37,958 nucleotides of DNA, from positions 1 to 37,958 of the forward strand of contig JAUCBJ010008844.1 of assembly GCA_032718475.1 (NCBI GenBank). The letters run 5' to 3'. Below, piece by piece: positions 7,342 through 37,958 of the stretch (position 1 is the stretch's first letter; each line of letters begins with the position of its first letter). Below the pieces are notes generated by a model, which did not search any database, was not told the origin of the DNA, and saw only the letters and a list, made by a program, of their open reading frames with translations. The stretch is from Nemertoderma westbladi. Lineage: Eukaryota > Animalia > Xenacoelomorpha. The translations under genes were made by a program, and so were the position numbers.

Positions 7342-7564
7342 TGAAAAGCATATCAATACTGTACAATACAGTTTCCTCTTATATTAAGATAATATTTGAA
7401 GATGAGTTTTAAGAGAATCTATAAATAATATTTAGCTGCAGTAGTGTAACAATTACTTTGGTGAGCAGTGTTGTATTTAATAGTTATGAGTGGTTATGGT
7501 TAATGGTCAGATCTCTAATGGTATGGAAAGAGTTCTGTTTTAGCAAATTTAAACTTAAAACCAG

Positions 7565-11772: not shown

Positions 11773-11858
11773 ATAGATGCTGGGCTCCAACTGCTGAGGA
11801 CAAGAAACAAGATCTCCTATAATACTCAATATGACTCATACACAAGAATGCCATTTCG

Positions 11859-12182: not shown

Positions 12183-12361
12183 ATTTCGGGATCACAGTCA
12201 AGTACAATGCGCAGATCTCCGTCTAGATATTACACAGCATCGGTCTCATTTAACGGAGCTGCCCCCACTTTCCAGGACATTGCTTTTGCCGAGAGGACCA
12301 GTCACTGTGTGGTTAAATTAAGATTTACTCGACAAATTTAGCAAAGAATTTGGGTGAATTA

Positions 12362-12530
12362 TTCGACTCTATGACCCATTACAATCCAATATATTAGATC
12401 TACCACTAGTAGGTCGAGTGAGCTCGGTCAGTGGAAATTAGATCTTACCAGGCTTCCCGATTCTCCTTGGTCATTAAAAAATGGTTTTAATTTTACCTGA
12501 TATTAGATCGTCATGGGCCAAAGAGTCAAA
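12362..12530. mobile_element. Small degenerate inverted-repeat element (possible old MITE)
   Basis: GACTCTATGACCCATTACAATCCAATAT (12365) matches the reverse complement of ATATTAGATCGTCATGGGCCAAAGAGTC (ends 12527) at 23/28 positions. Confidence 0.5.
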
Positions 12531-12689
12531 AAATGTAATGCAAATCCGTGGGCTATCCCAACTACTAGGGTAGAGTTATGCCGGCCAGCCAATCGGTTTT
12601 GTTGGCTGTAATTAATTATTTCGATACCAATTTAGCCAAAAGCACTGCGAGTGAAGTAAGAAGATGAGTTTCCTCAGGTTACCCCATCA

Positions 12690-12950
12690 GGGAATATGAC
12701 TTTTCACCCATTTTTGGGTCGCCCGGCCGCTCTCGACGTGAAGTATGGCCTCTACGAATCCATCTTCATTCCGCATTCCTGACCCGCCGAACATTCAGCG
12801 CACACTAGGGGCATTCTTCACTGGTCGGATTTACTGAACTAATTACAAGGGGGATGTTTGCCTGCACGCGTCGTGAACTGTAAGCCATTGCGTGGATCCC
12901 GGCTTGGCCGCCTGTGCGCCAATCTATTCCGCTCGCACGGAATTGCATTC
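12690..12950 (-). pseudogene. Possible decayed LINE ORF2 C-terminal fragment
   Basis: GC-richer patch with an R-PGRPK-type motif on the - strand; frame broken. Confidence 0.25.
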
Positions 12951-13751
12951 TGTTGAGTTAATCCCAACGGACGCCACCAGGCTAATACAACGCTGTCAAG
13001 TTGAAACTTAAAACTCTAGGATTTTAGGAAGAAAACTTGTTGAGTATCGTGCTTTCGACAAAATTGCATTATAATATGGAATCTTTGCAAGCTGCGTAGT
13101 TTTCCAAACGGTATATGCATTTCCTGTATATTAATTAGGTGTGATTCATGATGTAGAACGTACCGAATTCTTCAAGGTAAAGGTACAACTAGAGATATGA
13201 TAGCAGCTATACCTGCGATATAAGATATGCAAGAAGTATTAAACGCAATGGGATACAAAAATATTGATTATAGTCTAGATGTTACTTGATTAGGCAAACA
13301 TATTCCATATATCATTATATTTAATAAAAACAAGTTAGTGCATAAATTTCCTATCCTATAACAACTGTATTTCCTAACTCACACATACCTTGTTCACATA
13401 CCACCGTAAACAACGATTTTAATATATAAAGTTGTGTTTTTGAGGGATGGCTAACATTCAAGGATTTGTAAAGCACCATGTATCATTTTGAATTTTTGGT
13501 TAGATACATGAAACATAAACTTGCCAGTGAATCTAAACACTGGTCTACACAATAACGAATCGCATCATCATTTATTAAGGTGGTACTGATTGTGGGCTAC
13601 TTACCCACTAGTGTTGCCCCAGTTGAAGAGATGACACATTTCTACTACAGCGCAAAGTCTACAAGCAGCTACTGGTGGAGAGGATCTGCATGAATTCTCA
13701 CCTTTTTCCTAGGTGACTTTAATGCAAGTACATTAATCATCAAAATTACCG

Positions 13752-14260
13752 TACTACTACTACTTACTATAATCGACCTGCTGCATTGAAACCGCATATT
13801 GAGATGCTATGCCGGTTTAACTAAAACATTTTGTCACCACCATTTGCAATCCAACACTGGCAAGCCCAATGCAGCGTGCATTAAGAATGCTATGCCGGCT
13901 TATCAATAAAGTTGCACCGCCACAACTCCCTATCCCACATGACTTTCGCGAGATTATCCGCATCTTCAAGGCCAATATACTTTAGGAGGCGTCTCACGAA
14001 TGTCGCGGCATGTCCACCATGCTTGTTTTCTCCATGGGGTGACCAAAACACAGGATTATGCACTGGCTGGTCCTCACGGCGAAAGCAGTGTCCTGCAAAG
14101 CGGATGCGGCTTTGTTCAAGTGTCAAGCTTGGGGGAACCAATGATACACCTCCAATGTTATATAGTGTCGGGTTGGAGATGTGTGCATTTATTTGACACA
14201 GTGAACCCGACGTAGCATTCTTGCGAATACGCCATCCAGAGATTTGGTATCCTACCGTAG
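13752..14260 (-). mobile_element. 3' part of an RTE-like LINE (decayed)
   Basis: LDGVFARMLRRV and RIRFAGHCFRREDQPVHNPVFW...WDRELWR, typical of the RTE ORF C-terminus; AGT-type tail near 13752-13770. Confidence 0.8.
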
Positions 14261-16444: not shown

Positions 16445-17030
16445 GCACAAATCCATTAGGGTATTGAAAGGTCCATAGCTTCCCTTTACTCTTTTCGAAT
16501 GTTTTGTTTGTTGGTATCAATTCACATTCCTCCATTAGGTCTAAAAGTAAGTTAGAACTTGTTGTTATAGGTGTAACCTTTGATGTCTTCTGGGCCAATT
16601 TGCGCATTCAGGTCACCAGCAATGACTTTAACATTGTGTTTCGGAATGTCCTTTATAAGTCCAGTCAGATCTTCATAAAACTTGACTGCTTGTTCTGGCT
16701 CTGAGGCATTGGTTGGACTGTAGCAAAATATAACTGTTGTCTTGGGATTCCCATCAAATGTTGCGATCATAACCCTGGAATTTATAGATTCGATATTGTT
16801 TAGGGTCTTAAGTGCAAATGGGCTTAGCGGAATTCCTACTCCGCCAATTGATGCATTGGCCGAGTTTCTTACTGCTGAGCTTGTTACTAACGTCCATCCA
16901 TTTCCAATGTCATTGTACTTCATGGCAGTGTCTTCATGACAAATCCGATGTTCTTGGATGCAGATGATGTCGATGTTATATTCCATTGCCAGAGCAACCA
17001 TGTCACCCTGTTTGCTATGTGCTTTCATAC
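16445..17030 (-). pseudogene. RTE-like APE endonuclease fragment
   Basis: IDIICIQEHR, GGVG, CYSPTN, AGDLNAQIG, continuing after a break as LLLDLMEECELIPTNKTFEKSKGKLWTFQYPNG. Confidence 0.85.
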
Positions 17031-18115
17031 ATTCAATGATACATTATTATTAATAAAATACTAACTATTAATCTTAGCCCTTAACATAAATAACTCGATT
17101 TCAGTCTATACTTTTCACAGTGGTCTAGAATCCCCGTTTTGTGCCAAAATTCATTAATTCGAAAAGTATTCACATTTTGAGAACACCTTTTCTCCAATAC
17201 CGGTTTTCGAGGGTGCTGAATAATTTCAGAATGATCTCGAATTATGAACATGTCCGTTGTTCCATTTCTTAGCACAAGATTAAATTGGTAAATCAGCACA
17301 TACAATTAATAGTGCTACAATGTCACATAATTTGCTTCTAATGAATTTTCAAGGGTACTCTTTCAAGGGTACTATTATCACTTAGTGGCACAGTAATAAC
17401 TGTTGATAGAATATGGCACATGCAAAATGGCACAAAATATCACAATACTGCTCGACTAAAAAAGTAAAATTTTTAGTTTTTACAGGTTTTCAAGGGTGCC
17501 AAAGCGATTAAAAATGGTTTCGAATCCAGTAGTGGCACAGATGTGCCACACACTTTCTAGCTCGTGCCACATGGCACGACATGTCAAATATCAAATAAAG
17601 GTAAATATGTTTTACAGATGTTGGCTTAAATTGGATATGATATAGGTGTATCTGATTCGATTAAAAAATCAGTTAAATTTGCCACAAGTGTGCCATGAAT
17701 AACACAAAATGATTTCCTCACTTATCATTTGTTTCTAGAGCTTTCCAGTGAAAATTCATTAATTGTTTTGGGTTAGGCCTATCGTAATATACCGGTATCC
17801 TACATCTCTATATGCAAACAGGGTAAAAGTAATAATTTCAAGAATACAATAACTAAATTTTTTGAATTTCAATTTTCTGACAAAGGGGCAAGTGAGGGCA
17901 GCTATTTTTCGGTGTTCTATTAAGTATATAGGCTACACTACAGAATTTGAGTGGTATCTAGCGGGACAAAAATTTACAGGCTTTTCAAAATGTGAAAAAT
18001 TGAAATTTTTTGCAAGTATTTAAACCTATTTAAACGAGAGAACTTCGAGAACACTTGCTCATATGGTGTAACTGATGCTAGTTTTGAAATCGTCTCGTTG
18101 AGAATATCAGTTTAA

Positions 18116-18842: not shown

Positions 18843-19264
18843 TTAAGAAAAACGTTTGTCATATTTTGCCAACTATTAACGATTTTATAGGAAAACAATT
18901 TTCATTAAAAAATCAAAATTTTGTATAAAATATTGATTTTTATCAAATTTTCGCTACTTTTAGTCAAAATGTTTTTGAAGACCATTTATGTTAGCTTTAA
19001 TTTGAGATAATAAAAAACAAAATCGGAAGCAACATTTTTTTGCAATTTTGGCCACATCTGGACTAATGAGCTTTGGCGGGATGTGTGTGTGATCATTGAA
19101 TGACTTAATTAATAATAACACAAATATCCAATTTGTCGTAATTGCTCACAGGCAATAGAAAGCAAATCTAGCTCACCGCTACTGCATTATGATGTCCCCA
19201 AACAGGATATTAAACATAAAAAAAACTGTCCATCTAAAAATTAATTGTTCAAAGCCATTATATT

Positions 19265-20438
19265 TGTTCGCGCTTTCAGACCTTTGGCAGTTTAACCCGC
19301 CAAATTAAGATGTCTTCTAGATATTAAATCGGTTTTTAGTCTATGACAAGTATTTGATTCACTACACTAGTCGAAACCAATCTGTGCGCGATCATTCACC
19401 CGCTGGATATACCCGGGAGATTGGGTTCGACGGCTTAATCGTATTGCTATGTAGGCCTAATGTATTATTCGACTGACAGTATTATATAATCTCTGACAAT
19501 ATTATTCACCTTCGGGAAATATTAACAGTTCCTTTAGGACGTGGCGCTCTACCTATATAAACAGAGTTATGACTTAAACTACTCACAACGATATGGCTTA
19601 GTTATAATTCACATATATGGCGCATTCTTTAGGAAATGCTTCGTTATCAGTCTCACTCATACACAATGCTGCACAATACTGCACACTAATCTGCCGATCT
19701 TCACTGATTTTAGTCACATATAAAAGGAACACGGACCGAATCATGTAGGGTCTATCAAATAACATTAGATTTACTTCAAACCACTTTAACATAAGTCACA
19801 ATCGTTATATGTAACCTTTCTCTCTTACCTTCGGTATATCAAGAATATTGGGTTTTCGTGGTTATTTATCGTTATTCCAAATATAATAATTCATCAACCA
19901 TATTATGAAGAACTGACAGTAAATAGCAGTATAACAATATAAAAGTATGCACAGGTTGTTTGATTAGGTATGGTATGTTATGTTATGTTGAGTTTAGATA
20001 ACGGATATATGTCCTTATAATTAAGCCTACTAGTGTAAGACTAAAAACTGAAAACACGGAGGTGCCAAAAGCCGGTTCTTAGGCTCTGGGCAAAACATAA
20101 CACTGAACTACTGAGCCTCTGTATACACCTCCAACACAGAGACAACAAACGCTCTGATTGGTCAACCGAACAACGAGAGAACAAAGAAACAAAGAACTGT
20201 CGACGTGGCAATATCAGCTGCTAGCCGTCGTCATGGCAGCGCCATTGTTTTCAAGAGTATCCAGCTATTGCGTCACGAAATTACGGATTATGTCCTTTAA
20301 AGTACACATACAGAAGAAATGACTTTTATGTCCTCTAAAACACCAGTACAGTAAGAACACGGCCTTTTTATGCCTGGTAAACCAACTACAGAGTACTTTA
20401 CGGGAAAATAACCGGCTAATTACGCAAAAGCTTTTACA
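19265..20438 (-). repeat. 3' LTR (1174 bp)
   Basis: TGTTCGCG...CTTTTACA on +; about a dozen differences from the other LTR by eye. Confidence 0.97.
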
Positions 20439-20446
20439 CTGCTCCC
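20439..20446 (-). promoter_or_regulatory. Short polypurine tract (GGGAGCAG) immediately before the 3' LTR
   Basis: The - strand reads TTTTCTGGGAGCAG|TGTAAAAG; position agrees with gag orientation. Confidence 0.55.
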
Positions 20447-23400
20447 AGAAAATGGGATTTAAGTCTATAAAATATAACAAATCACAGTTTCTAAAATATA
20501 AAGATACTCTAAACAGTTAGTCTTTCTTACGCAGACGGCGTTTACGCAGTTTTTTGAGGCTAGCAAGAGTCTTTTTCTCTTTGGGGGGAGCCACTTTACT
20601 AGGAGGGCCATAACTCCTGGGTGAAGGGTGCAATATGATTGCATCAGAAGGTGTAGGATTATGGTCGAGGTATCTGCCGTTTCGATATGCTTCTCCTCGA
20701 GCTGATTTTCCTCCGCTCGTAGCTGGATACGTTCATCCAAAAACTCTCGCAGAGAATAGGATCGTCCAAGTTCGATAACTTCTTAGAGATTCTGGATTTC
20801 CCAATCGAATTGAGATAAGGCCAATTCGTTTATCGATTGGACTTACTGTTATAACTTACGTTTATCTGAACAAACGCAGGTTTCTTTTTTGATCTTTATA
20901 GAATAGCGTTTAACTCGTTTCGTACAACGCTCTCCTTCACCTTGATGAGGGGTTGTATCGCGTTAAACGGGGACGACCATACGGTTGGATAGTGATATTA
21001 GGTGTCCGCGTCACAATCCGGCTAGGTAAGATGGGCGGCTAGCTAGAAATCACTGTCGGAGTGTTACCGATTAATTGTTAGGGTAGCACTAGATCTTTGA
21101 ACAGTGAATACAGTCCGCGAGGATCCGCGACACCACCAGGATCGCAGGTCTGAGGTCCAACTAAGGAATGAGGAGGTTTGACCGAGTATTCCGGGACTCT
21201 GATCGTAGGTTTACTCCAGGATCGTTCGAGCCGAGTGAGCATAGGTGATACGTCAACAAGTTTCGGTTTACGTGGATGTTTATGTCTTTCCGTTTATTAG
21301 TTGGGTCTAGGGCATTTATCGTAATAATACCAAAGACGCACGTCTGGTAGGGTAAACGCGGGTGATATTTATTTGTTGTTACAATGCTTCTATCAAGAAT
21401 TCCAAATATACGTTGGAGTTACCGCGTCCATTTGTTTCTTTAGTGTCTTTTCTTTCGAGTCGGTTTCGAATAGAATTTTCGCATTCGAATTTCAGTTTAT
21501 GGTTCCGACTCCGCTGGGCAGGATATATAGTCGACATAGTCCGTATTGTGTAAATCGATAGGATGACCAGTAGTTAAGAAGCCCATATACGTACCATTAC
21601 GCCGCGTATATCGAGCAGCGAATTTTCTATAGCCCAACTCGTGCGAGCTGCTCTTGGGACATTGGCGGTTCGATATAACGACCATCGTCCTCCGCAGCAG
21701 TTGGACTAACGTCGCCGCGTATTAAGCTATCAACAAACGCTTGTAAAAGTAGAGTATATCGCTCCCCGATACCAAGACCATCTTCTAGCAACTCCGTCAT
21801 ATCTGCTATATATGAGTTTATCCATATTATAATGAGTTTATATTTAGGCGAGCGGGCGTCGCTGCCTACCCCAATCAGCCCCCGGACAGTGCGAGATCCT
21901 CAGCGCCGATGTGTCGTCGCCGCTGTACTTTCGCCAACGACGTAGCCGCACAACGACAACGACAACCGGCACAAGTCACTCGACTGTCCGTCCCAAAGGC
22001 TTAGATACACCTCAGGTTCTTACTGGTTACTTTCAGGTTTTACTTACTGGTCCTCAGGTTACTTTCACGATTGCGACTCGCTACTGTAAACACACCTTAG
22101 TAGTAACATTCGCCTATAAACTCACAAATACCACACACACAACTTGTCACAAATTACACACACTCGGGTCACTTGTCCGTTAGTCAATGCCTTCCAGAAT
22201 GTCACTGTATTACTATGTATCCTTGGATACTAGCAGTGCGCTATTTATTCCCTATGCTATTCAATGGGACAAGCTTTCTATTGTTCTTTTAACTCAATTC
22301 TAATTCTAGCGTGGTTGTTGCTATGGTGACATTATGCAAAGCTAGCGGTAGAATTAGGGTAATTCCAATGCATACAGATCTGGGATGTTATTTAATAGTA
22401 ATTCTTTAATGGTCAATGTCCTGTTTTATACATGACTTTATGAATTTTATCGGCTATTGACTATGTTTGGGAGACTTTCGCACACTCATACGCATAATAA
22501 GATAAATCTCCGCTCCCTTGATCTATTAATTAATGGAATTTTGGGAATGTTATAAATTGCGTAAAAATGGCAATTTATTAAATTCATTAAAAGGCATGAA
22601 TTTAAATTTATTCCCTGAAATTTTATTATTTGATAATTAAATGGACATATTTTGAGTCTAGAACATGTCTGGGGACACAAGATCCTTAATTCTATGAAAA
22701 TTGTCCTTTTAAGAATATCGGTAAATGCTACGATATCTTAATTGACTAGAATTGTTGAAGGATCTGATTTTTACAGAGTTGATTTATTAGATTTGCAAAT
22801 ATTAAATAATTAATATTTGAGATGGGCACCGATTTATTCCAGAACTTGTCTGGGGACGTTAACCACTGATTCTAGAATTTGTCTTTCAAGTATATCGGTG
22901 GGTGCCGCGATATCTTAATCGACTAGAATTACAGATGGTCAAAGGGTTTAACAGATTTATTTTGCGTTATACGCTACTGTTAAAGGGACATCACGCTACT
23001 ATATGTATTACTTAATATACGGTATGAGAGCAATATCGCACGAAGCAATGTCAGTGTGAAGAGGCAAGTCGTTTCCAAGGTCTACCCAGAGCTTGGTTTA
23101 GCCGAGACACGAGGATCTGAACTTTGCATTCCTAATACTCTGCCTACCAATAATACTTAAATATAGTAGTGGCTTTATTGTACTTTAATAAGTACGGATA
23201 TTTCATCTTACTGTAGTCACGTATTTATAATATGATACGGGCTGTAAGGAAAGAGAAAAAGAATTATTTCTCGCCGTCGCACTAAATATATAATATACGT
23301 AATTAAATAATAAACGCGAATATATATTGCACTAATCTACTAAATAATCTCTAAAATACCATACTACTAAATAAAATTAAATAAAACGATTAAAATAAAA

Positions 23401-23477
23401 TTACATAATAATACATACATAAATATAAAATAAAACAAATACAAAATAATAGAGTCACACACCCACTCCATATGTTG

Positions 23478-26400
23478 TTACGTTATGGAGTCCCTAGATG
23501 TTTGAAGGATTAGGGAGGTGGTCGTGGGAAGAGAATCTTGCCTTCCACAGTTTCCGGAGAGTCCTCCATTCCCTTCCGGTAAACACAAACGACCGACTGG
23601 GTGATTGAGTCGCTGCATCCCGAATACAATTCCAGGTTTCCTCTTCGTCCTGGAATAGTGACGATAGAAACATCGCTCTAGGTACACGACGGCCTTACAA
23701 AGCCGATTCCAGGAGCTATAGTGGTCCGTCGCTCCCTGCAGGAGAGGTGAGAGTCCCTGCGAGACGTCTGATGTTCCAGAGCTCCAATCGCTCTCTCTGA
23801 TCTTCATGAAGGATCCACTCGCGGTGGGGAGGTCCAGATCCACGGCGTCGTCCCTGGCAATATGTAATACCGACAGATCTATCCCGGGTTCAAATAACTC
23901 CGATCCACCCGTCCGGGTTTTAGGTTTGACTTTCTCCGCTCCCTTGGCTGGTCTAATCTCAGTCGGAGTAAGATGGGGAGGCCATTCATCCTCCTTACTC
24001 AGGAAGTCGGGTTCACCTAACCGGTCTGTAGTATCTGTCAGTTCTTGAGGAGTTGCTCCTCTGGAAGCGATGTCAGTTGGATTAAACTTCTTGGGGCAAT
24101 ATCTCCATTGATCTACATTGGAGCTAATATTGTCATTATCTGAGGAGTATGGTGTTCCCTCAGTTGGGTCATCTCCCTCACTAGTATCATCTTCCCATTC
24201 ACTCACCTGGCAGACGCGATCTTGAAGCAGTCTTTCTCTGAGCGTTCTTCGGGAAGGTCCAGTAAGGTACCAACCTACTCTAGTTCTTACCGCATAGGTC
24301 TGAAGTGGTTGCGGTTGAGCAGGTCGTTTCTCCAATGTCTCCAGCGCCTCATGCGCGTTTTGACCGATTAATATTTGTACTCCAGGATAATCGGTGTCGA
24401 ATCTAGGAATGTTAAGTTGTTGGGCATGATCATCTTCGTCCCAATTATAAGGTTCCACTTGGGTGGTAGCGAAGTTCTTTATTGCCACCATTTTGACTGA
24501 CCTTATACTGTGTTCTCCTAGTTTATCCTGTGGAGTGGACAACTCACCTATATAATAGTCGGCAGCCACAGCAGATTTCCAAACCTGCATGATCCCTGAC
24601 ATGTTTAGCTTGGTTCGGAACTTGGGTTGTCCAGCAAAGATGTCTTCGGCTAGTTCTTTATCGATGAATGTTCCTGTGCTGCCGGAGTCCAGGAGGGCGT
24701 TCACTATATAGCTCTTCTGAGGTCCGTGGACCCGTAACTGGACTACAGGAAATTCTCGGATTCCTACATTTGAAGTTGGCGCTTTCCAAGATTGTTGTTG
24801 ATCTGAAGTAGTTAGGGTGAGGTCGCTGTCTGTGTCTTTCTCATACATGAGTGCTCGATACACTGCGGTGGTGTTTATTAAGTAACAGGATTCGTTTTGG
24901 TCGGAGAATTCGTCCGTATAGAATCCTTCCATCTCAGATTGATCAGTGTCGTTCACATCACTGAATTGGACATGTAGTTCGGAATCACTCACCTGACTCG
25001 GACTATTTCGCTCGAATTCAGTGTGCAACAAGATATGATGTTTCGCACCGCACTTTGCACACCTTGCGTCGGAGTAACAGGTTCGCCGTTGGTGTCCTCG
25101 TCTGAGGCAATTATAACACAACCGCTTATCCCACATGACTTCCCGTCTCTCTTTTAATGATTTCTTTAAGAATTTATCACACGCATTTAAACGGTGGGGC
25201 CCGTCGCACAGCACACATTTGGGCTTGATGTTACTTACTTTAACATGTGCTGTGTGGTGCACGTTCGTTCTTTCCTCGGGCTTTCTCACCTGAATTCTCT
25301 TGGGAGACGTAGGAGGAGTTTTTCTTACCTGTTCTCTCCTGTCATTGGTTCGAGACTTGAATTTACTTACCTGGTCTTTAGGCGTTTTATTGACATAAGA
25401 TCTTTCAGTGTCTTTCCCGCTATCCTCTCCTTGAGAAGTCTGGCTTTCGCCGTCGTCTGTATAACACACTGGTGTTACCCTTCTCCTAGAAACGGGTTTC
25501 TCACTTACCTTGTTTTCCAGTGTCTTCTCTCTGGACTGCCTTAGGAGCTGTAATTTCACTTCTCCATCTAAGAATGACATGAGATCAGCCATGGTAGGGT
25601 CTCGTCGTTGTTGTTCCATCATATATAACACTTTCTTATCCCAGCGTGTACCTACTCCACCCTTCAGTAAAGTAGAAGCCACTGCTCTTATAACCATAGT
25701 ATTCTGATACTCATGAGACTTACCTAGCCAATCTAATTGTCTGCAGATCTCCTGAATCTCATCGGAAAACTCTATAATTCCGCTGCTAATAAACTTTCGG
25801 GGCGCTACCAACTTTGCATACAAATACCCAGCTATGTTATTCCTATTACCATACCTGATGTTTAGTGTATCCCAAACTTGTCTTAATCCGTCTGGATGTC
25901 CAATAAACTTTAACGCCATTAACTTGGGAGATCCTTCCAAGCATTCGATGAGGAATCTAAGTTTCTCTCCATTAGATAGCACAGAGTTCTGTATGTTAAC
26001 TTTGTAATATTCATTAAAAGGTAACCATTTCATCTCATCTCCATTGAACTTGACGATCTCTCCCACCTTTACCGCTTGCCGGGCTTCGGTTCTAGCCATT
26101 TGACGCGTAAAACTTTCTTGGGCCATCGTGTTATTTAATATCGAGTTATCGGTATATAAATTTCTCGGATTATGATCCGTTCTATATGGAATATCATTAT
26201 CAACAGGTCTATAATTACCCTTAATAGGGTTCACTATAGGAGTTTCTACTTCGCTAGCAGTATAGATGCGTGTAGGCTCCACACCTTGCGCATGCGATAC
26301 TTCAGACCTAACAGGTTGACACATTGTTACAGAGGGTGGTGGTATACCCTTTTGGGTATTTACTAATTTATCGCGTTCTAGCGCGATACTTTGCTGCACT

Positions 26401-28394
26401 TCTTGCAACTCTAGCCTACTTTCCCTTACTGTGCCTTTGAATTGTCGAACAGTCTCCTGCATCTGTCCGAGCAGGAGATCCATTCCCCGTCGTCTCTCGT
26501 CCACCCATTCGACCGCCGAAGCGGGAGTCGCCAACGTTGTAGCGGGCGGACGAGGGACAACGGGCGACAAATCATGAATATTTCGCTCGGGGTCCAGGAC
26601 CTGAACTGTCTTCTGGGCAGTTCTACTGGGCACAGGTAGCTTAGTGCTATGCAGAGGGAATTTAGAGGTAGTTTCAGGGAGCACAGGTGTGTCTATCACC
26701 GAAGGGGTGATTTCAAGAACAGGCCTAATTATTTCAGGCTCATCTACTATAGTAGGGAGTCTTTCTATTTTAATTGTTTGGTCTGTGGGTTCTGTACTAC
26801 CTAAGTTGGTGTTATTTAGTTGCCTTCTAACAGCTGGAGGCAAATCAGGCAATTTCTGACGGTGGAACGTTCTTTTACGTCTGCTTAGACGAGATCTATT
26901 TCCTTTGCCTTCAGTATCGGTGGTATCGCCTTCCTCAGATGATGTATATCCCTGCCTTTTGGGAGTAGATCGATTCATCATCTGCATATTACTAGCTGTT
27001 AACTGTTTATTTATGCAGTCTTGATTCTCCTGAATGTTTTCCAATTCTAATTGGGTGGTTTCTTCAGCCGCTCTCCGTTCTGCTTCTGCCACTGCCTCCG
27101 CCACTTTTCTTTCCGCTTCGGCCGCTGCCTTTGCCTCTGCCGCTGCCACTTTTGCCTCTGCCGCTGCCTCTTTTCTTTCTGCTTCTGCAGCTGCCACTGC
27201 TGCTGCTACTGCCGCTGCCTTTCTGTCTTCTATACGTTTTTTCTTTACTTGTTCTTCTTGGACTCTGGTGATGCGGAGTTGTTCATCAAATTTAGCCTGG
27301 TTCGCAGCCCTCATTTCCACATCGATGGCATCCAACACAAGCTTGGTTCCTTCACTATTAGGGCTAAGTCCCTCTAACCTTCTCCTCAACTCGTCATCAC
27401 CTAAAAAACGTTGATAGTCTGACAGATAGATGTCAATGGCATCCCTCTTATGCGGTTTCTCTGCCGTCGCTTCACTTTCCACTTGGGAAAAAGTAGCGTC
27501 TGTTGATTCTCCATGGGTTGAGCGCTCCTCTAGCTGAGCTTTCCACTGAGCTGTTCCTTGAACCTGGAGACTCACCCTTTGAAACCAAGTCTTTACGGCA
27601 ACTTGCAACGACGTGTCTTGCCTTCGTTTAGAAGCCTCCTCAAAGGCCGATAATATTAGCCTGATTCGTAGAATTCTTTCTCTAACTTGATAAAGCAGTT
27701 GTCCCTGCTCTTGAGGTCCTTGTGGTTGTTGAAACAGTTGTTTTTCTACTCGCTCCATAGAGCTGAAGAATCCCTGTGCGTATCCGGCTGCGGACCTCTT
27801 CCACACAGCTGGATCGATGGTTTCCTTGGCTACTCCCATCCGGTGTATGTCTTCCCAGGCAGCTTCTGATAAATCAAACGGGAGTCCGGGTCCGGGGAAG
27901 TTCCATTGCGACTCGACAATAGACTTCAGTTCTTCACTCGTGTATCCCGCATAATTATCTTTAGTTGATCGTTGACTTCTCGCCCAATCGATCTGGTGTT
28001 CTTCCACTGCAATCAATAACCTAGTGAGTACGGCTGCAGGAAGGATGAGAAGGGGATCCGAATAAACCGCTTCCGTCATCTTTGCTCCGCGCTCGGGTGT
28101 CAGCTCTACAGTATCCTCACTACTGGAGCTGTTGGGCCGTTGAGAAATAAGTTCTTGGCTAGCGGGTTGTTGCTGTTCTGCTGCTTCTTGGTCCCGCTTG
28201 ACCTGAGCTCGAGTGCCTATGATAGACCTACGATGTTGGACCAGCCTAGGTTCCGTTATTACTACTGGAGGGATGACCTTCCTCACAGTGGGAGGTGAAC
28301 TGAACTTACGACTAGACGGTTCTACGTCTCTATCTGAGTCGCAGATAGTTACATCTAATAAACTGTCTGACAGGTTCTGCTTAGTATCAGACAT
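23478..28394 (-). CDS. BEL/Pao Gag-aspartic protease polyprotein (1638 aa) with only remnants of Pol
   Basis: DUF1759-like capsid region (KFNGDEMKWLPF...LSNGEKLRFLIECLEG); BEL triple zinc knuckle (CVLCDGPHRLNAC, CYNCLRRGHQRRTC, CAKCGAKHHILLH); protease ALLDSGS...ILIG; TRVGWYLTGP; then WRYCPKKFNPTDIASRG. No YxDD RT motif and no HHCC/DDE integrase seen. Confidence 0.92.
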   Translation of the reverse strand: MSDTKQNLSDSLLDVTICDSDRDVEPSSRKFSSPPTVRKVIPPVVITEPRLVQHRRSIIGTRAQVKRDQEAAEQQQPASQELISQRPNSSSSEDTVELTPERGAKMTEAVYSDPLLILPAAVLTRLLIAVEEHQIDWARSQRSTKDNYAGYTSEELKSIVESQWNFPGPGLPFDLSEAAWEDIHRMGVAKETIDPAVWKRSAAGYAQGFFSSMERVEKQLFQQPQGPQEQGQLLYQVRERILRIRLILSAFEEASKRRQDTSLQVAVKTWFQRVSLQVQGTAQWKAQLEERSTHGESTDATFSQVESEATAEKPHKRDAIDIYLSDYQRFLGDDELRRRLEGLSPNSEGTKLVLDAIDVEMRAANQAKFDEQLRITRVQEEQVKKKRIEDRKAAAVAAAVAAAEAERKEAAAEAKVAAAEAKAAAEAERKVAEAVAEAERRAAEETTQLELENIQENQDCINKQLTASNMQMMNRSTPKRQGYTSSEEGDTTDTEGKGNRSRLSRRKRTFHRQKLPDLPPAVRRQLNNTNLGSTEPTDQTIKIERLPTIVDEPEIIRPVLEITPSVIDTPVLPETTSKFPLHSTKLPVPSRTAQKTVQVLDPERNIHDLSPVVPRPPATTLATPASAVEWVDERRRGMDLLLGQMQETVRQFKGTVRESRLELQEVQQSIALERDKLVNTQKGIPPPSVTMCQPVRSEVSHAQGVEPTRIYTASEVETPIVNPIKGNYRPVDNDIPYRTDHNPRNLYTDNSILNNTMAQESFTRQMARTEARQAVKVGEIVKFNGDEMKWLPFNEYYKVNIQNSVLSNGEKLRFLIECLEGSPKLMALKFIGHPDGLRQVWDTLNIRYGNRNNIAGYLYAKLVAPRKFISSGIIEFSDEIQEICRQLDWLGKSHEYQNTMVIRAVASTLLKGGVGTRWDKKVLYMMEQQRRDPTMADLMSFLDGEVKLQLLRQSREKTLENKVSEKPVSRRRVTPVCYTDDGESQTSQGEDSGKDTERSYVNKTPKDQVSKFKSRTNDRREQVRKTPPTSPKRIQVRKPEERTNVHHTAHVKVSNIKPKCVLCDGPHRLNACDKFLKKSLKERREVMWDKRLCYNCLRRGHQRRTCYSDARCAKCGAKHHILLHTEFERNSPSQVSDSELHVQFSDVNDTDQSEMEGFYTDEFSDQNESCYLINTTAVYRALMYEKDTDSDLTLTTSDQQQSWKAPTSNVGIREFPVVQLRVHGPQKSYIVNALLDSGSTGTFIDKELAEDIFAGQPKFRTKLNMSGIMQVWKSAVAADYYIGELSTPQDKLGEHSIRSVKMVAIKNFATTQVEPYNWDEDDHAQQLNIPRFDTDYPGVQILIGQNAHEALETLEKRPAQPQPLQTYAVRTRVGWYLTGPSRRTLRERLLQDRVCQVSEWEDDTSEGDDPTEGTPYSSDNDNISSNVDQWRYCPKKFNPTDIASRGATPQELTDTTDRLGEPDFLSKEDEWPPHLTPTEIRPAKGAEKVKPKTRTGGSELFEPGIDLSVLHIARDDAVDLDLPTASGSFMKIRESDWSSGTSDVSQGLSPLLQGATDHYSSWNRLCKAVVYLERCFYRHYSRTKRKPGIVFGMQRLNHPVGRLCLPEGNGGLSGNCGRQDSLPTTTSLILQTSRDSIT

Positions 28395-29717
28395 GTTTAT
28401 GTGTACAGTTGAATGTCTACTGCTGCATTACAGTCTGAGCAAGTCTAGTAACTCAGTATTAACTGCTAGCCTAGTAATTAATTACCGGTACTGCTACTCA
28501 GTGCAGCGTGATATATATAATATATTAGAATACCGGTATGCTTATAGTATATATAACTATATAAGTATTATTACAGACTAGGTTTATCACAGAATACCGG
28601 TAAAATTTTAGCACAAATATATATAAATATATAATAGGCCTATCGGGAATACCGGTATACAGCTTACAGTTTGTAGTATATATAAGTATAATTCTGGACT
28701 AGAATTAATTATAAAGTACCGGTATAATTTCAGCCTAAATTTATAGAAATAAAGATAATAGGCCTATCGTAAATACCGGTATATCAATTATTTTAAATAA
28801 TTGAATTTCTGAATTTTAGGGTTACTTGGTTACTTTACTTACTTTATTACCGTTATTTGAGCAGTAATCCAACTGATATTGAGACCTAATGGTTGTATGG
28901 TAGGCCTACTATTTATAAATCGTTAGATTTGATTTATAATATATATATACCCGTTTTAATGGGTTTTGTCAATGTTTGAAATAAATGTTATTATTTCTGG
29001 GAAGTAATCACTACACAAAGCGGTGCGCTTTCAGTGAAGTGTTACTTATAGGACACTAAAACAAATAATGCTAATTTACCTAAGTTACTTAATACTACAA
29101 ATTACGTACAATTCGGGTGAGATTACAATCTCTAAATAAACACAAAAATTTACAAAAACACAAAATACGAATTTTCAGGGTAATTTTACAAGAAGTCTAC
29201 AAACCAGCCTAACAAAGGGTTAGAATCTGGTTATTACAACTGACAGGGTACTGCGGTATTTGAAAATAATACGTAGTAGTAAATACACTGCGTTGTCCAG
29301 ATAGGAAAATACCACCGCCTGACGACCTATAGCCGTATCGCTATAGGTACTACGTTATGTATCACGGAGTGTTCCTACCTAGAAGTTAATAGAGCTAATC
29401 GAAAGTGCCTATCAACCACTTTACAACACAAATATAATGCCTACACTAATTACTCTCGGAAAGCACTGTACACTAAACCCTAAATTAGGTACGAGTACTT
29501 GTACAACATATAATCAGTAGTTAAATATACTTGAACAGCTAAAAGAACCACGGCATCTGCTGGAGTGACCGGTGCACACAATCACCAGTCTTTACCTACG
29601 CCAAGCAGCCCGTGTAGTACCGGGGTTAATTTAACTATAGCGGTATGTATAACAAACACAATTATTGTAGGAACAAACTTGGGGAATGAATGTTGCGAAT
29701 AATCGCATAAACTCTGA

Positions 29718-30290
29718 ATAATAAATATTACGCTACGCGTACAAACCACTCAAACAAAATGCAGACCAAACACTGACAGACTACTATCAAGCCTAAATAA
29801 ACTACAGGACATGCAGACTCCGAAATGATTAGGTAGTATGCGTTCTAACCCAGTAGTACGACTTATTCTTTAGTTGGGGGTTTACCTTACAGCATTGGCT
29901 GCCCCTACTTCCTAACCGTTCTTTATCGGACAGAGGCTCTATACACACTGCAATCCGTTCAGACCTAATAACAGCCAGACAACTATCCAGCCTACAAATT
30001 ATCTAAATAAATATTATACGCTACCCGTACAGACTTACACAAACAAAGTACAGACTAAACGATGGCAGACTACTCTCAAGCCTAAATAAACTACAGGACA
30101 TGCAGACTCCGAAATGATTAGGTAGTATGCGTTCTAACCCAGTAGTACGACTTATTCTTTAGTTGGGGGTTTACCTTACAGCAATTGGCTGCCCCTACTT
30201 CCTAACCGTTCTTTATCGGACAGGTGATCTACACACACTGCAATCCGTTCAGACTTAACAACAATCAGACAACAGCTCAGCCTACAAATT
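29718..30290. repeat. ~289-bp tandem duplication in the LTR element's 5' leader
   Basis: CAAGCCTAAATAAACTACAGGACATGCAG... at 29788 and 30077, near-identical core with more diverged flanks. Confidence 0.9.
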
Positions 30291-30563
30291 GTCTGTACAA
30301 TCTGATCAGGCTTACACGCCTTCTGTTCAATACTGGCCTACAAACAAATAAAACTTGACAGAAATAAGTAAAAATCTCAATAAAAAACCAGGGCGGGCCC
30401 TCCCTGATTAATTATTAAGGCCTACCGGTATATAATTATCAAAATCGAATAATACTGCTGTACCTGTACTGCTGTAGGTACCGGTCCGGGTGGTTAGGTA
30501 GTCAGGCCTACTGGGTACCGGTTGCCGGTACTTCCGCTTTATTGCCTACTGCAATACAGAAGC

Positions 30564-30575
30564 TATATCCGTTAT
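30564..30575 (-). promoter_or_regulatory. Primer-binding-site position, non-tRNA type (ATAACGGATATA), complementary to an LTR-internal 12-mer
   Basis: Abuts the terminal CA of the 5' LTR; lacks TGG; exact inverted repeat of 31308-31319. Confidence 0.6.
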
Positions 30576-31748
30576 TGTTCGCGCTTTCAGACCTTTGGCA
30601 GTTTAACCCGCCAAATTAGGATGTCTTCTAGATAATAATTCGCTTTTAGCCTATGACAAGTATTTGATTCACTACACTAGTCGAAACCAATCTGTGCGCG
30701 ATCATTCACCCGCTGGATATACCCGGGAGATTGGGTTCGACAGCTTAATCGTATTGCTATGTAGGCCTAATGTATTATTCGACTGACAGTATTATATAAT
30801 CTCTGACAATATTATTCACCTTCGGGAAATATTAACAGTTCCTTTAGGACGTGGCGCTCTACCTATATAAACAGAGTTATGACTTAAACTACTCACAACG
30901 ATATGGCTTAGTTATAATTCACATATATGGCGCATTCTTTAGGAAATGCTTCGTTATCAGTCTCACTCATACACAATGCTGCACAATACTGCACACTGAT
31001 CTGCCGATCTTCACTGATTTTAGTCACATATAAAAGGAACACGGACCGAATCATGTAGGGTCTATCAAATAACATTAGATTTACTTCAAACCACTTTAAC
31101 ATAAGTCACAATCGTTATATGTAACCTTTCTCTCTTACCTTCGGTATATCAAGAATATTGGGTTTTCGGGGTTATTTATCGTTATTCCAAATATAATAAT
31201 TCATCAACCATATTATGAAGAACTGACAGTAAATAGCAGTATAACAATATAAAAGTATGCACAGGTTGTTTGATTAGGTATGGTATGTTATGTTATGTTG
31301 AGTTTAGATAACGGATATATGTCCTTATAATTAAGCCTACTAGTGTAAGACTAAAAACTGAAAACACGGAGGTGCCAAAAGCCGGTTCTTAGGCTCTGGG
31401 CAAAACATAACACTGAACTACTGAGCCTCTGTATACACCTCCAACACAGAGACAACAAACGCTCTGATTGGTCAACCGAACAACGAGAGAACAAAGAAAC
31501 AAAGAACTGTCGACATGGCAATATCAGCTGCTAGCCGTCGTCATGGTAGCGCCACTGTTTTCAAGAGTATCCAGCTATTGCGTCACGAAATTACGGATTA
31601 TGTCCTTTAAAGTACACATACAGAAGAAATGACTTTTATGTCCTCTAAAACACCAGTACAGTAAGAACACGGCCTTTTTATGCCTGGTAAACCAACTACA
31701 GAGTACTTTACGGGAAAATAACCGGCTAATTACGCAAAAGCTTTTACA
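30576..31748 (-). repeat. 5' LTR (1173 bp)
   Basis: Direct repeat of 19265-20438; upstream of gag on the - strand. Confidence 0.97.
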
Positions 31749-32479
31749 ATATTTCTATTATTGTGATGGTACACACAGGGCTGTCTTAAGCTGTATATCT
31801 GGCCTTTGAGGGTGTGGAATAACAAAGCCAACCCCACCCCCCCCCCCCACGCCCCCTACACATAAAACAATTACAAACATCATACAATTTGGTAGTATAT
31901 TCGTGGGACAGTGCCCCCCCCCCTTTATTGGTCCTTCAAGTCAAACAAGTTGCCCAGGAAATGAGGAAAATAAAGGCCAGCTATAAAACATTAATTTTCA
32001 TAGTGATGATTGCAGAATGTGATCGTCCGATCAGAGCTACTGACTTCAGTATTATAGGCTCAACCAGAAATTTTTTAACGTTGTTAATTAGGAAGCTTAG
32101 ACCGACCCTCAACACACAGATCACTTCTATTCCACCTATTAGGCCCCCTTTCAGTCCAACCCCCCCCTCCTTTCGTAACTACGGCACTGTCGCATGAATT
32201 CTTTGACCGATTTTCTACTTAGTCATAAAAATATATAAAATTCTGTGCTATTTTAACGGTAAATTTATTGTAGGCATGGTTTGCCCGTTAGTAATAATTA
32301 GCTTTATTATTTGTGCATTGAGAATGGTTTAAGTATTACACCGAAACGTCTGCAGTCATCACTATGAAATGTTAAGTTTTATCGCTGGCCTTTATTTTCC
32401 TCATAACTGTTAGATTCCCCGCTTCTATTCATCTTGCCCAGGAGTTATCATCAAAAGTCATAGTCATATAAACGCGGCC

Positions 32480-34033
32480 ACGGGCCTCCTACGGACCCCG
32501 GGCCCCATATGGACCCCAGGCCCCCTACGGACCCCGGGCCTCCTACGGACCCCGGACCCCCTACGGACCCCGGACCCCCTATGGACCCCAGGCCCCCTAC
32601 GGACCCCGGGCCTCCTACGGACCCCGGACCCCCTACGGACCCCCTACGGACCCCGGACCCCCTACGGACCCCGGACCCCCTACGGACCCTGGGCCCCCTA
32701 CGGACCCCGGGCCCCCTACGGACCCCGGGCCCCCTACGGACCCCGGGCCCCCTACATACCCCGGGCCCCCTACGGACCCCGCGGTCCCTACGCACCCCGG
32801 GCCCCCTAGGCACCCCGGGCCCTCTACGCACCCCAGGCCCCCTATGAACCCTGGGCCCCCTACGGACCCCGGGCACCCGGGCCCCCTACGGACCCCGGGC
32901 CCCCTACGGACCCCGGCCCCCCTATGGACCCTGGGCCGCCTATGGACTCCGGGCCCCCGGGCCCCCTACAGACCCCCGCCCCTGTGGACCCCGGGCCCCC
33001 TACGGACCCCGGGCCCCCTACGGACCCCGGGCCCCCTACGGACCCCGGGCCCCCTACAGACCCCGGGCCCCCTACGGACCCCGGCCCCCTTATGGAACCC
33101 GGGTCCCCTACAGACCCCGCGCACCCTACGGACCCCGGGCCCCCTACAGACCCCAGGCCCCCTACAGACCCCAGGCCCCCTACGGACCCTGGGCCCCCTG
33201 GCCCCCTATGGACGCAGGGCCCCCTACGGACCCCGGGCCCCCTATTGACCCCGGGCCCCCTATGGACCCCAGGCCCCCTACGGACCCCGGGCCTCCTACG
33301 GACCCCGGACCCCCTACGGACCCTGGACCCCCTATGGACCCCAGGCCCCCTACGGACCCCGGGCCTCCTACGGACCCCGGGCCTCCTACGGACCCCGGAC
33401 CCCCTACGGACCCCGGACCCCCTATGGACCCCGGGCCCCCTACGGACCCCGGGCCTACTACATACCCCGGGCCCCCTACGGACCCCGCGGTCCCTACGCA
33501 CCCCGGGCCCCCTAGGCACCCCGGGCCCTCTACTCACCCCGGGCCCCCTAGGAACCCCGGGCCCCCTACGGACCCCGGGCACCCGGGCCCCCTACAGACC
33601 CCGGGCCCCCTACGGACCCCGGCCCCCCTATGGACCCTGGGCCGCCTATGGACTCCGGGCCCCCGGGCCCCCTACAGACCCCCGCCCCTGCGGACCCCAG
33701 GCCCCCTACGGACCCCGGGCCCCCTACGGACCCCGGGCCCCCTACGGACCCCGGCCCCCTTATGGAACCCGGGTCCCCTACAGACCCCGCGCACCCTACG
33801 GACCCCGGGCCCCCTACAGACCCCAGGCCCCCTACAGACCCCAGGCCCCCTACGGACCCTGGGCCCCCTGTCCCCCTATGGACGCAGGGCCCCCTACGGA
33901 CCCCGGGCCCCCTATTGACCCCGGGCCCCCTACGGACCCCGGGCCCCCTACGGACCCCGGGCCCCCTAAGGACCCCGGGCCCCATACGGACCCCAGTCCC
34001 CCTACTGACCCCGCGCCCCCTATGGACCCGGGG
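32480..34033. repeat. GC-rich 18-bp minisatellite (CCCCTACGGACCCCGGGC), ~85 units, with ~0.7-kb higher-order duplication
   Basis: Variant blocks recur at 32755/33461 and 32871/33577 (706 bp apart) and 33081/33751 (670 bp apart). Confidence 0.95.
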
Positions 34034-34245: not shown

Positions 34246-36020
34246 ATTTCATTTCAATTCAATTTCAGTTTATTTTCCAATAATATTTCCAATAATAACA
34301 ATACATACATACACAATGGGAATACTTAAATTGTTACAAATTGATAATTTTATTAATTTAGACGGATGGAGACAGCGTGTAGCACGGTGGTGCTAGTAAT
34401 CGCTGCCACCTTTAGGTATGGTGGTATGGCAATACAATAAGAGATAATATCCTTAAATTACACGTATTGATCGGCAAGACAACGAGTTCTAAGAGTAAAG
34501 CAGGGCAATATTAAGAAAAAAGTGTATATAATATATTAGCGACCAATGATATAACTATGAAACCTTAAATATTAAGATATTTATAATGTTAAATATAAAT
34601 ACAGTAAAAGAAGTCGTGGAAGTCCTCTATACTGACGCGGCTTACTTAGAGGTGGAATGTTTTGATTGGTGGAATATTTGATGTAATTTAGATTAATTTT
34701 AATTTGGCTATTCGGAACCTAATGAGATACTATGATTTTAAATTTAATTTAATTTAAAGAGTGTTTAATTTAACTAATAGTAATATAAAATTTAGGGTGT
34801 TAATTTTTACCGATAGTATACCAAAATTCAAATATTTATCCCAGTATTAATCTGAATATTCAAGGACCCAATGGGCGAAGAGCGTGACCCCGCGCCCGGG
34901 TAGAACATGGCATCCCACCGGATACAGGCGTGACCCCGCGCCCGGGTAGAACTTGGCATCCCACCGGATACAGGCGTGACCCCGCGCCCGGGTAGAACAT
35001 GACATCCCACCGGATACAGGCGTGACCCCGCGCCCGGGTAGAATATGGCATCCCTCCGGATACAAGCGTGACCCCGCGCCCGGGTAGAATATGGCACCCC
35101 ACGCACGGGTAGTACAATAAAACACATTCCGAATGATGCTATGCCTACTGGTTAGGTATATATATCGTTGTGTAACTACTATTTATAAAGAGTTCAGAAG
35201 ATTAAGCTTAAGCTTCCTGCAGAAGAGTGGCTTATTTGGTAAATTTTTAAGTTTATCGTTGACAGATTTCCAAATGACAGGACCTTGATATTGCAGGGAA
35301 TTTTGTCCGACGAGCAGTCGAACGCGTGGGATAAAATAATTATCGTGTGTAGCCGAGCGGGTGCCATAAGAGTGTACACTACTAGTTCGCTGAAAAAGAT
35401 GTGCCAGGGGTGAAAAACCTTTGTTGACGTCGTACATTAATTTTGCTACTTCGAATTTATAAAGTTTATCTATTGGGAGAATGTTTAATTTTTTGTATAG
35501 TGGTGCAGAGGATGCCTGATAATGACTAAAAGTAATTGTACGTACAATTTTGTTGGTTCTAGTTCTAAGCGGGCGTAATATCGAAGCAAAAGTATTTCCC
35601 CATAAGGCAATTGCGTATTGTAATGTAAATATGGTTGAATTAAAGATGTGAAAATAAGACACAAAATTCTTAGGGGAAATATATGTCTCAATTTATATAA
35701 TAGTCCGCTAGTTTTAGATATTTTTTTAAGAATTAAATTGATGTGTGGCTTCCAAGACAGTTCATTATCAATTTGCACTCCCAAATATTTAGCACTGGTT
35801 ACTTTGGTAATATTAGTGTCATTGATTATTGCATTAGGTAAAGTGTTGACCCCATATGACTTACTATTGGAGAAAATACAGTATTCGGTTTTTTTTATAT
35901 TTAAGGTTAGCTTATTGTCAGTCAACCAGTCTGAAAGTCTGCTTAGGTTACTGTTCAGAGTCGATAATGCGAGAGGTAAGGATTTAGAGCTATGACGTAA
36001 GGTAGTATCGTCTCCGAAAG
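34246..36020 (-). mobile_element. 5'-truncated CR1-group (Crack/L2-like) LINE with long 3' UTR
   Basis: Starts at FGDDTT (mutated ADD motif), then WLTDNKLTLNIKKT, KYLGV, LSWKPHI, HSYGTR; stop at 35183. Frameshift from a TTACA duplication near 35620. 3' stem-loop CAGCG..TAGCAC-GGTG-GTGCTA..CGCTG (~34373-34405) and AATAAA plus ATTGA-type tail at ~34246-34274. Assigning all of 34246-35182 to this element is inference. Confidence 0.75.
34882..35101. repeat. 46-bp tandem repeat, ~5 copies (GCGTGACCCCGCGCCCGGGTAGAACATGGCATCCCACCGGATACAG)
   Basis: Units start at 34882, 34928, 34974, 35020 and 35066. Confidence 0.95.
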
Positions 36021-36029
36021 TAGTATCGA

Positions 36030-37735
36030 CAAGTTTACCGAGAGCGTGGCAATGCCCGACTCAACGATAAAGATGTAATGTACAGAACAATTTATTATAA
36101 AACGTAATTACAGTATAAATAGTAAATAATTAATAAACTAATAACTTACTGTAGGACTATTGTACCTATTTTTACATTGCACACGGAGGTGAGATTTAAC
36201 TGCAGATTTAAAAGAATGTTGATTATTTAGGTTTTTCATTTCATTAGGCAGAGCGTTCCAATTTTTAATGCCGTTAAAAAAGAAAGTATCAGATTCGAAG
36301 GATTTACGATTCGGGAGGTAGAAGTTTGAAGCACTTGCTCTGGTACTGTAAGAGTGTGTATCGCGTACTCTGTTGAATTTTTGTTTTAGGTAATTGGGAC
36401 ATTTACCATTATACACTTTATGCACATGGTTAAGGCGTAGCTGCTTAACTCTACTATCTAAGTTAAGTAGTCCAGATTCAGAAAAGTCTTCTGGAGTTAG
36501 GTGGTGCCTAGGTTTGTTTGTAGTCTTTAATAAATCGTACTACTTTATTCTGAGCTACTTGTAATTTACATTTAGGCTGTTTGGTTAAGCCTTCATACCA
36601 AGAAGAGCATGCATAGTCCATATGGCACTGTACTAAAGAAGGGCAAAGTAACTTGCGGGAGTCGGTGTTGAAAACTATTTTTAATTTTGTATAGAAACCT
36701 AAGCCTACTGTTAACTTTCGAGAAAATATTTTTCACTGTGCTTTCTCCTGATAAGCAGTTATCCAATGTGGCGCCTAAATATTTAACTTCCTTTTTATTT
36801 TCAATCTTATGTCCATTACTAGTGACTTCAAACTTAGTTACCTTCTTTAACTTTCTTTTGGAACCAAACAAAATACTTTCAGTCTTACCGTAGTGAATTG
36901 ATAGCATATTATCAACCAACCACTCATTACAGGATTCTAGAACTGCACTTAACTTTTGGGAAATATGGATAGGATCTTTATGAGAGAAAATAAGAGCACT
37001 GTCGTCGGCATATAAAATGAGTTTAAAATCGGGATCTATACTACTTATCATATCATTTACATAGCATTCAAAAAGCAGAGGACCTAATATACTACCTTGC
37101 GGTACACCACAGGTAATCTCTTGTATAGTAGACTGCGATTTGCTAATGACTACAGTTTGACCTCTGTCTGACAGGTAGGACTTGAACCAGTCTATATAAC
37201 CTACACCCATCAGGCCTAACTTACCAAGCAGAATTTCGTGATCTACTGTATCGAAAGCCTTTTGTAGGTCCAACATTACCATACCAGTATATAAACCCGT
37301 TGCGTTATTACATCTAATTGTATCAGATAAGTTAATAAGACAGGTGTCTGTAGAATATGATTTACGAAAACCAGACTGAAGTTCATAGATCAGATTTAGC
37401 CTACTAAGATGTGCTTCCAGCTGTAGAAAAACTGAACGTTCTAGAATTTTAGATACAATACTTAAGATACTAACAGGTCTGTAATTACAGGTTTCTACTT
37501 TACTATTCTTTTTATACAGAGGAACAACCTTAGCTAATTTCAGTTCGTCTGGTACTACATTATCTACGATAGAGTAATTAATAATAAAAATAATAGGCAC
37601 TTTAAGTACTTCAATACCATCCTTAAGAAAACGGGCAGGTATTAGGTCTAGACCGGTAGTTTTTGAGGCTGATAGGCTAAGTATATTTTGAAAAACGAAA
37701 TCCTCAGAAACTTGATAACTTGAAATTTGATAATC
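36030..37735 (-). mobile_element. 5'-truncated CR1-group LINE: RT domain and C-terminus, frameshifted
   Basis: [54 protein letters not shown]; frame breaks near 36670 and resumes to the stop at 36138 (HSYSTR...NWNALP). Confidence 0.88.
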
Positions 37736-37739
37736 CTGT

Positions 37740-37958
37740 GAATAGTTCCAAGACATGCAATGAAAGATAGTGTTGTTATCGGTGATGTTTTGAAGAGAGT
37801 ATAAATGCAGTCATTGGATACATAGTTTCCGATGAGGAGTAGACCCCGTAGTATTTTCCTGTAGTGGGAATCGAGCCGCCTTTGATCATTAATGGACATT
37901 GCACCAATACCAAGGCCTTCTTGGGAGTGAATGTATGAAGGGATTGCAATCGATTTCC
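37740..37958 (-). pseudogene. Fragment of another LINE ORF2 (post-RT region), running off the window
   Basis: RRLDSHYRKILRGLL...VSNDCIY resembles the LINE post-RT helix pattern; short. Confidence 0.45.

Follow-up and report, generated by a model that had tools for sequence, protein, structure and literature searches.

We found that a BEL/Pao retrotransposon of the xenacoelomorph Nemertoderma westbladi probably begins its reverse transcription in the manner of the fission yeast element Tf1, by folding the start of its own RNA back onto the primer-binding site, and that it would do so with the enzyme of a helper. The window, by which we mean the whole stretch of 37,958 nucleotides that was analysed, had been annotated earlier from its letters alone, and that sequence-only reading had proposed a self-priming BEL/Pao lineage. 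As far as sequence comparison goes, the proposal is supported by the BEL/Pao character of the element's protein, by a self-complementarity that is specific to each of its relatives, and by one compensatory change.

The element lies on the minus strand of the window, its extent being given by the alignment of its long terminal repeats (LTRs) and by its target-site duplication:

31749..31753, minus strand: left copy of the target-site duplication, AATAT
19265..31748, minus strand: the whole non-autonomous BEL/Pao element, 12,484 nt
30576..31748, minus strand: 5' LTR, 1,173 nt, TG...CA
20439..20446, minus strand: polypurine tract GGGAGCAG, adjoining the 3' LTR
19265..20438, minus strand: 3' LTR, 1,174 nt, TG...CA
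19260..19264, minus strand: right copy of the target-site duplication, AATAT

The LTR alignment overruns the edge by one base, the first base of the duplication also being A, and the edge was set at 30576 because of the TG...CA termini and the 5-bp duplication. The two LTRs agree at 1163 of 1175 positions (99%, 12 differences) and the duplication is intact; hence, the element is a young, recent insertion. Its interior consists of about 3.0 kb (20439-23478) and about 2.2 kb (28394-30563) of non-coding sequence, which includes short local repeats at 29748-30294, and of a single coding region:

23478..28394, minus strand: single open reading frame, 1,638 aa from the first ATG, with a long N-terminus
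about 26048-25677, minus strand: DUF1759 gag domain (E 1.3e-9, above the cut-off)
25217-25023, minus strand: three zinc knuckles
24695-24678, minus strand: protease motif
24134-23960, minus strand: C-terminal end of an RNase H, in frame after the protease

When the window was searched by tblastn with 10 relatives, only the gag, the protease and the RNase H C-terminus were matched; the reverse transcriptase (RT), the RNase H core and the integrase were not found, nor did tblastn with the relatives' proteins recover an integrase remnant in the non-coding internal parts (20439-23478 and 28394-30563). Because RT and integrase are absent, the element is a non-autonomous BEL/Pao derivative that needs a helper, not an intact member. 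The assignment to BEL/Pao made in the sequence-only reading is confirmed by the DUF1759 gag and by the homologs, all 25 of which carry Pfam families of the BEL/Pao type (DUF1759, Peptidase_A17 or DUF5641). The closest protein relatives are about 30% identical (among 1.84 billion representatives) and identity to the relatives spans 22-32%; the sequence libraries searched hold no close relative of the protein, and a pattern search of viral_contigs gave 90 matches, none of them a relative. Measured against the 2021 ICTV profile of the Belpaoviridae (PMC8742986), the element has the DUF1759 Gag with zinc knuckles, the protease, LTRs within 0.2-1.2 kb, a polypurine tract no longer than about 10 nt and a target-site duplication. 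It departs from that profile in its length of 12.5 kb, in the absence of the full set of RT, RNase H and integrase, and in having neither the 18-nt site complementary to the 3' end of tRNA-Arg or tRNA-Gly from which host-tRNA priming is described nor a TGG after the LTR. The same profile calls replication in this family poorly understood.

The complementarity on which the self-priming reading turns comprises three segments:

30564..30575, minus strand: putative primer-binding site ATAACGGATATA, 12 nt, with zero gap to the terminal CA of the LTR and no TGG
31308..31319, minus strand: putative self-primer 12-mer, LTR nt 430-441, the exact complement of the site
19998..20009, minus strand: the same 12-mer again, in the 3' LTR

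The sequence-only reading had described a site set directly after the LTR and lacking TGG, an exact 12-nt complement inside the LTR, and a match ending exactly at the LTR edge. All of this holds: 30575-30564 directly follows the terminal CA, the complement is at 31319-31308, and the pairing cannot be extended on either side. Beyond its two LTR copies, the exact complement of the site occurs nowhere else in the window. All 12 of the 12 bases are complementary, at least 10 nt of LTR complementarity being the mark of the Tf1 type. The distance of the paired segment from the LTR end is 744 nt, compared with 72-510 nt in 19 relatives. A primer built by splicing was considered for the window element and rejected, the contiguous 12-mer being the best match. 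A search of the window for tRNAs found none present, and an Rfam search gave only two weak matches (E 0.9 and 1.6), which were disregarded.

Could the match be an accident or a relic, in an element that is dead or mobilised by another route? It is seen in one copy only, any genome scan comes across many LTR elements, and of the 10,097 start positions in the internal region one other besides the primer site also reaches 12 nt. Against this, when the LTR was shuffled by dinucleotide 20,000 times, only 6 shuffles reached at least 12 nt at offsets 0-3 (mononucleotide expectation 2.2e-4), which gives p about 3e-4 for a position that was set beforehand and upholds the earlier claim that the match is improbable by chance; furthermore, the trait recurs in 13 of 15 relatives, and LTRs 99% alike with an intact duplication mark a recent insertion. 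Thus, we regard an accidental or relic match as very improbable indeed.

The relatives were gathered from an alignment of seven full-length sequences, which led to 84 loci (78 from metagenomes and 6 from genome collections). The LTR end could be read from two LTR copies in 19, four of which were dropped (two duplicates, one without the 3' LTR end, and one without the 3' LTR start) to leave 15, and the scoring admitted both contiguous matches and matches across GT-AG introns. At offsets 0-4, a range widened after two cases had been seen, 13 of the 15 show a complement of 10-15 nt in their own LTR; the LTR ends of L039 and L056 were set after a blind scan, and the stricter count without both is 11/13. 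At offsets 0-3, an element's own pairing reaches at least 10 nt in 11 of 17 rows, versus 2 of 294 cross pairings. Ten of 238 cross pairings reached 10, nine of which fall within the group of L019, L023, L056 and L057 that shares one site. The scoring relatives represent about 10 different primer types, with the site at offset 1-4 and never at 0, and TGG is missing in 14 of the 15 relatives with a mapped LTR end. The two misses are L057 (7) and L066 (5); the latter is the only row with TGG, and reaches 10 with a non-consensus donor.

What the sequence-only reading missed is that in most relatives the complement spans a splice junction of the LTR. Just two of the 13 scoring relatives have it contiguously; the other 11 (L019, L023, L032, L038, L055, L075, L077, L079, L080, L039 and L056) assemble it across a GT-AG junction with consensus-like donors. 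Only 3-9 paired bases precede the donor in these, which implies very short first exons, and the spliced relatives keep the intron in both LTRs. The blind scan covered 14 loci whose LTR end was not fixed; the best values, 9-13, exceeded the control maxima (8-11) in 12 loci and equalled them in 2, which is consistent with self-complementarity, weak as it is when taken alone.

In a quick tree of 64 rows, with SH-aLRT support only and with the window row filled in 37% of the columns and on a long branch, the element falls in a 13-row clade (SH-aLRT 99) with L007, L012, L079 and L080, which is nested in a set of 31 rows (96); every one of the 16 loci included in the tree belongs to that set. This tree, built without named BEL/Pao clade references (Sinbad/Sailor, Suzu, Tas), only sets the element apart from the insect-labelled rows. 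The polypurine tract of the relatives (found in 48 of 55) differs from that of the element, and for this reason the window element is a separate sub-lineage. The BEL/Pao elements L079-L084 come from contigs filed under bacterial metagenome-assembled genomes; these contigs are most likely animal DNA in bacterial bins.

Co-variation of the site with the LTR segment, which the sequence-only reading had put forward as a check, is seen among the distant relatives in L079 and L080. Their LTRs are 91% alike, and three bases that differ between their sites are matched by three complementary bases at the exon end. Sister copies of the window element were sought in run X1 (assembled contigs, 0.27 of words). 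In one contig, with a depth of 16.6 of 20.1, two bases of the primer site are changed (30575 and 30571), and no change in the adjoining 60 U5 bases is among the changes listed. The altered site forms 10 of 12 pairs with the window's 12-mer, at -7.3 kcal/mol against the -13.3 kcal/mol predicted for the 12-bp duplex; it has no better partner in the window's LTR, and its own LTR is not among the X1 pieces compared. The primer site thus varies within the window element's family, which is unexpected for a site bound by a tRNA.

These observations bear on the possibility that a host RNA, such as half of a tRNA cleaved in its anticodon loop or another small RNA, serves as the primer, with the LTR match being due to chance or to a captured copy of that primer. 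Priming by half-tRNAs is described for Copia lineages, and in the accessible sections of the same papers it is confined to them (PMC6317226, PMC10886601). As the sequences stand, a fixed host tRNA does not explain a self-complementarity that differs from family to family, each site matching its own LTR, and that is accompanied by compensatory change; the sister contig that alters 2 of the 12 site bases likewise speaks against it. We therefore consider a host primer quite improbable.

If the RNA primes itself with its first bases, transcription should start next to the 12-mer. Three signals of the LTR are relevant here:

31323..31330, minus strand: TATA-like TTATAAGG, which precedes the 12-mer by about 10 nt and is a caveat for the start
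31320..31321, minus strand: initiator-like CA, directly before the 12-mer (-2/-1)
31131..31138, minus strand: candidate consensus-like splice donor AAG/GTAAGA, downstream of the 12-mer

We predict that transcription starts at the A of the CA, 31320, because a CA precedes the 12-mer here and the paired segment in relatives; this prediction backs the start proposed in the sequence-only reading. In 12 of 19 relatives, against an expectation of 3.5, a CA stands within the four positions that precede the paired segment, and C at -3 and A at -2 occur in 11 and 13 of the 19, respectively. Among rows with fixed ends the CA count is 6 of 12 against 2.1 expected (p 0.009, post hoc), and a test restricted to YA at -2/-1 in these rows, chosen after seeing the data, gives p 0.08. 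TATA-like motifs at -36 to -19 are not enriched (5 of 19 relatives against 2.9 expected). The TATA-like motif that had been noted upstream of the 12-mer does exist, as TATAAG at 31329; if used, it would put the start downstream of the 12-mer and, together with a CCAAT box 150 nt upstream, it leaves doubt on the start.

In another form of self-priming, the segment would be internal or would come from the 3' LTR copy or from a second transcript, the start being farther upstream or the 3' end of the RNA being trimmed to the duplex. Initiator-like TCAGT motifs at 31361, 31416 and 31424, the CCAAT box itself (31471, about 150 nt upstream) and the lack of a TATA box at -30 would suit an upstream start. 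Moreover, neither AATAAA nor ATTAAA occurs anywhere in the window element's LTR, so that the 3' end of the RNA cannot be placed. In the relatives, however, an A[AT]TAAA poly(A) hexamer follows the segment in 14 of 19, so that the segment falls on R's 5' side; the CA signal stands immediately before it; and the retention of the intron in both LTRs of the spliced relatives would fit the 5' copy as the primer. An internal or 3'-derived segment is accordingly unlikely in our estimate. The sole AATAAA near the 5' LTR is at 30543-30538, in a predicted leader hairpin just past the primer site.

Contigs of X1 leave the LTR either at 31306, with U3 and the 12-mer kept, or at 31244, with the downstream part kept. 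One contig (depth 8.5) retains the 12-mer unchanged and departs from the LTR at 31306, whereas X1 depth over the LTR mostly falls upstream of about 31244, where a contig continues into other sequence. The LTR thus looks modular right around the predicted start (31244-31306). The single X1 joint within the LTR (69 nt) has no GT-AG ends on the element's strand. In addition, half of the LTR differences (6 of 12) fall within a 32-nt portion of U5, at 30619-30650 and its counterpart in the 3' LTR, and 4 of the letters of the 3' LTR are present in X1 contigs. From this cluster and the occurrence of its letters in X1, the element may have arisen by recombination between two variants of its family, and may be younger than its divergence of 1% suggests.

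We return to priming by the start of the RNA and its predicted folding, in which three further segments stand out:

31263..31307, minus strand: G-free, A/C-rich stretch after the 12-mer, 45 nt, predicted to be unstructured
30594..30615, minus strand: predicted U5 hairpin upstream of the site
30530..30563, minus strand: predicted leader hairpin whose first base immediately follows the site; 2 of 3 windows give it as stable

The predicted self-primer duplex, which encloses a loop of 732 nt, belongs to the minimum-energy structure in 8 of the 21 long folds computed and is absent from the other 13. It forms in all 8 folds that start at LTR nt 421-430 with a leader of 30-60 nt, in none of the 4 with a 150-nt leader and in none of the 9 that start farther upstream; forcing it costs 2-17 kcal/mol in folds with the longer leader. 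By local folding, the 12-mer and the site are each predicted to be among the most accessible 8% of 12-mers. The G-free stretch belongs to a run of 49 nt, the next longest in the LTR being 16. The local fold of U5 with the leader is not more stable than that of shuffled sequences (z -1.4). Weaker helices between U5 and leader, which the sequence-only reading had placed beside the duplex, fared unequally when the primer site was held open: ACUGC/GCAGU, both arms of which sit in local hairpins, has a probability of 0.0 in 3 of 3 windows and is not predicted, and AAGC/GCUU ranges from 0.02 to 0.70 depending on the window. Hence, the folding models appear compatible with self-priming and are not decisive.

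The course of events that we propose would begin with Pol II starting at or beside the CA at 31321-31320. The segment 31319-31308, whose complementarity is plain and whose pairing is predicted, would then anneal to 30575-30564 across the loop of about 730 nt, which an LTR intron from the donor at 31138 might shorten. By analogy to Tf1, RT/RNase H would cut after the paired segment and extend its 3' end into U5, presumably followed by transfer to the 3' R, with an autonomous relative supplying RT and integrase in trans. The paired primer is perhaps 10-12 nt, since the relatives leave a spacer of 1-4 nt after the LTR. The window element would represent a lineage trait in its contiguous form, a trait for which most of the relatives sampled make use of a splice junction. 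In these relatives, the retention of the intron would fit a 5' copy that is spliced and then cleaved off to act as the primer, with the template provided by a 3' copy that stays unspliced. More broadly, we incline to the view, with more reserve than for the window element itself, that a large branch of BEL/Pao abandoned tRNA priming, and that the capped first bases of its RNA prime either contiguously or via a first exon of 5-12 nt joined by the spliceosome, the LTR intron thereby surviving replication.

In Tf1, the RNA's initial 11 bases pair with the site and RNase H cleaves between base 11 and base 12, according to the accessible text of PMC7175516 and PMC4600332; self-priming of Tf1 is also described in the available part of PMC5341516. 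Like Tf1 and Tf2 of S. pombe, Tj1 of S. japonicus and the Tf1/sushi chromoviruses (Metaviridae) at large, the window element has no tRNA site, and an LTR segment, of 11-12 nt in these elements, complements the bases after the LTR. Unlike them, it belongs to another superfamily, its protein being of the BEL/Pao type and not that of a Ty3/gypsy chromovirus, and it has no chromodomain integrase, or indeed any integrase. It further differs from Tf1 in its loop of about 730 nt, in a U5-IR-like flanking stem that is only partly predicted, in a start and cleavage that are putative, and in having relatives that build the primer across an intron. Thus, the element most likely works like Tf1 and is not a member of the Tf1/sushi group. 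A further close precedent is the prediction of self-priming for the plant Copia lineages TAR, Houba and Osr-1 and for the plant Gypsy lineage Tcn1, made where a complementarity of 10 or more bases starts 0-5 bp past the LTR, a pattern that the window element shares; the accessible part of that survey treats them as Copia or Gypsy elements of plants and has no BEL/Pao case (PMC6317226). The sections available of PMC5445492, PMC3601003, PMC2864245 and PMC8220671 likewise contain no case of self-priming in BEL/Pao, and terms for the primer or its binding site are absent from PMC3118150, PMC554778, PMC6238403, PMC8556966 and PMC5408684. Our literature search returned no paper on a self-priming BEL/Pao element; most subscription papers, Repbase Reports and supplements lay outside its scope, and a prior note may exist. 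The signature of the window element most likely reflects a form of the known Tf1-type mechanism, in a superfamily defined as tRNA-primed. Cer7, a nematode element of the BEL/Pao superfamily, has reportedly been proposed to encode its own tRNA-like primer, a proposal that our search of the literature did not find.

If the proposed mechanism is correct, BEL/Pao would be the third superfamily of LTR elements with self-priming, which has been shown in Gypsy and predicted in Copia, and it would become clear why no tRNA can be assigned to the primer sites that these elements carry. The defective element of the window would show that the self-primer can function with RNase H supplied by a helper, and across some 700 nt of loop. 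The mechanism predicts a start within 2 nt, an RNA of 11-13 nt on strong-stop DNA and, in the spliced relatives, a reverse-transcription step that is gated by splicing. Silencing can act through tRNA fragments at the primer site, and self-priming elements would be freed from it.

Elsewhere in the window, frames of non-LTR retrotransposons are found at 480-3296, 16552-17043, 35485-36060 and 36593-37810 (an endonuclease with RT, an endonuclease piece and RT pieces). MITE-like inverted-repeat elements lie at 11497-14097 and 31961-32404, one of them with an inner palindrome of 157 nt. There are also two tandem arrays, one of 30-nt units at 7439-9000 and one of 18-nt units at 32428-34000, the second being very C-rich on the plus strand.
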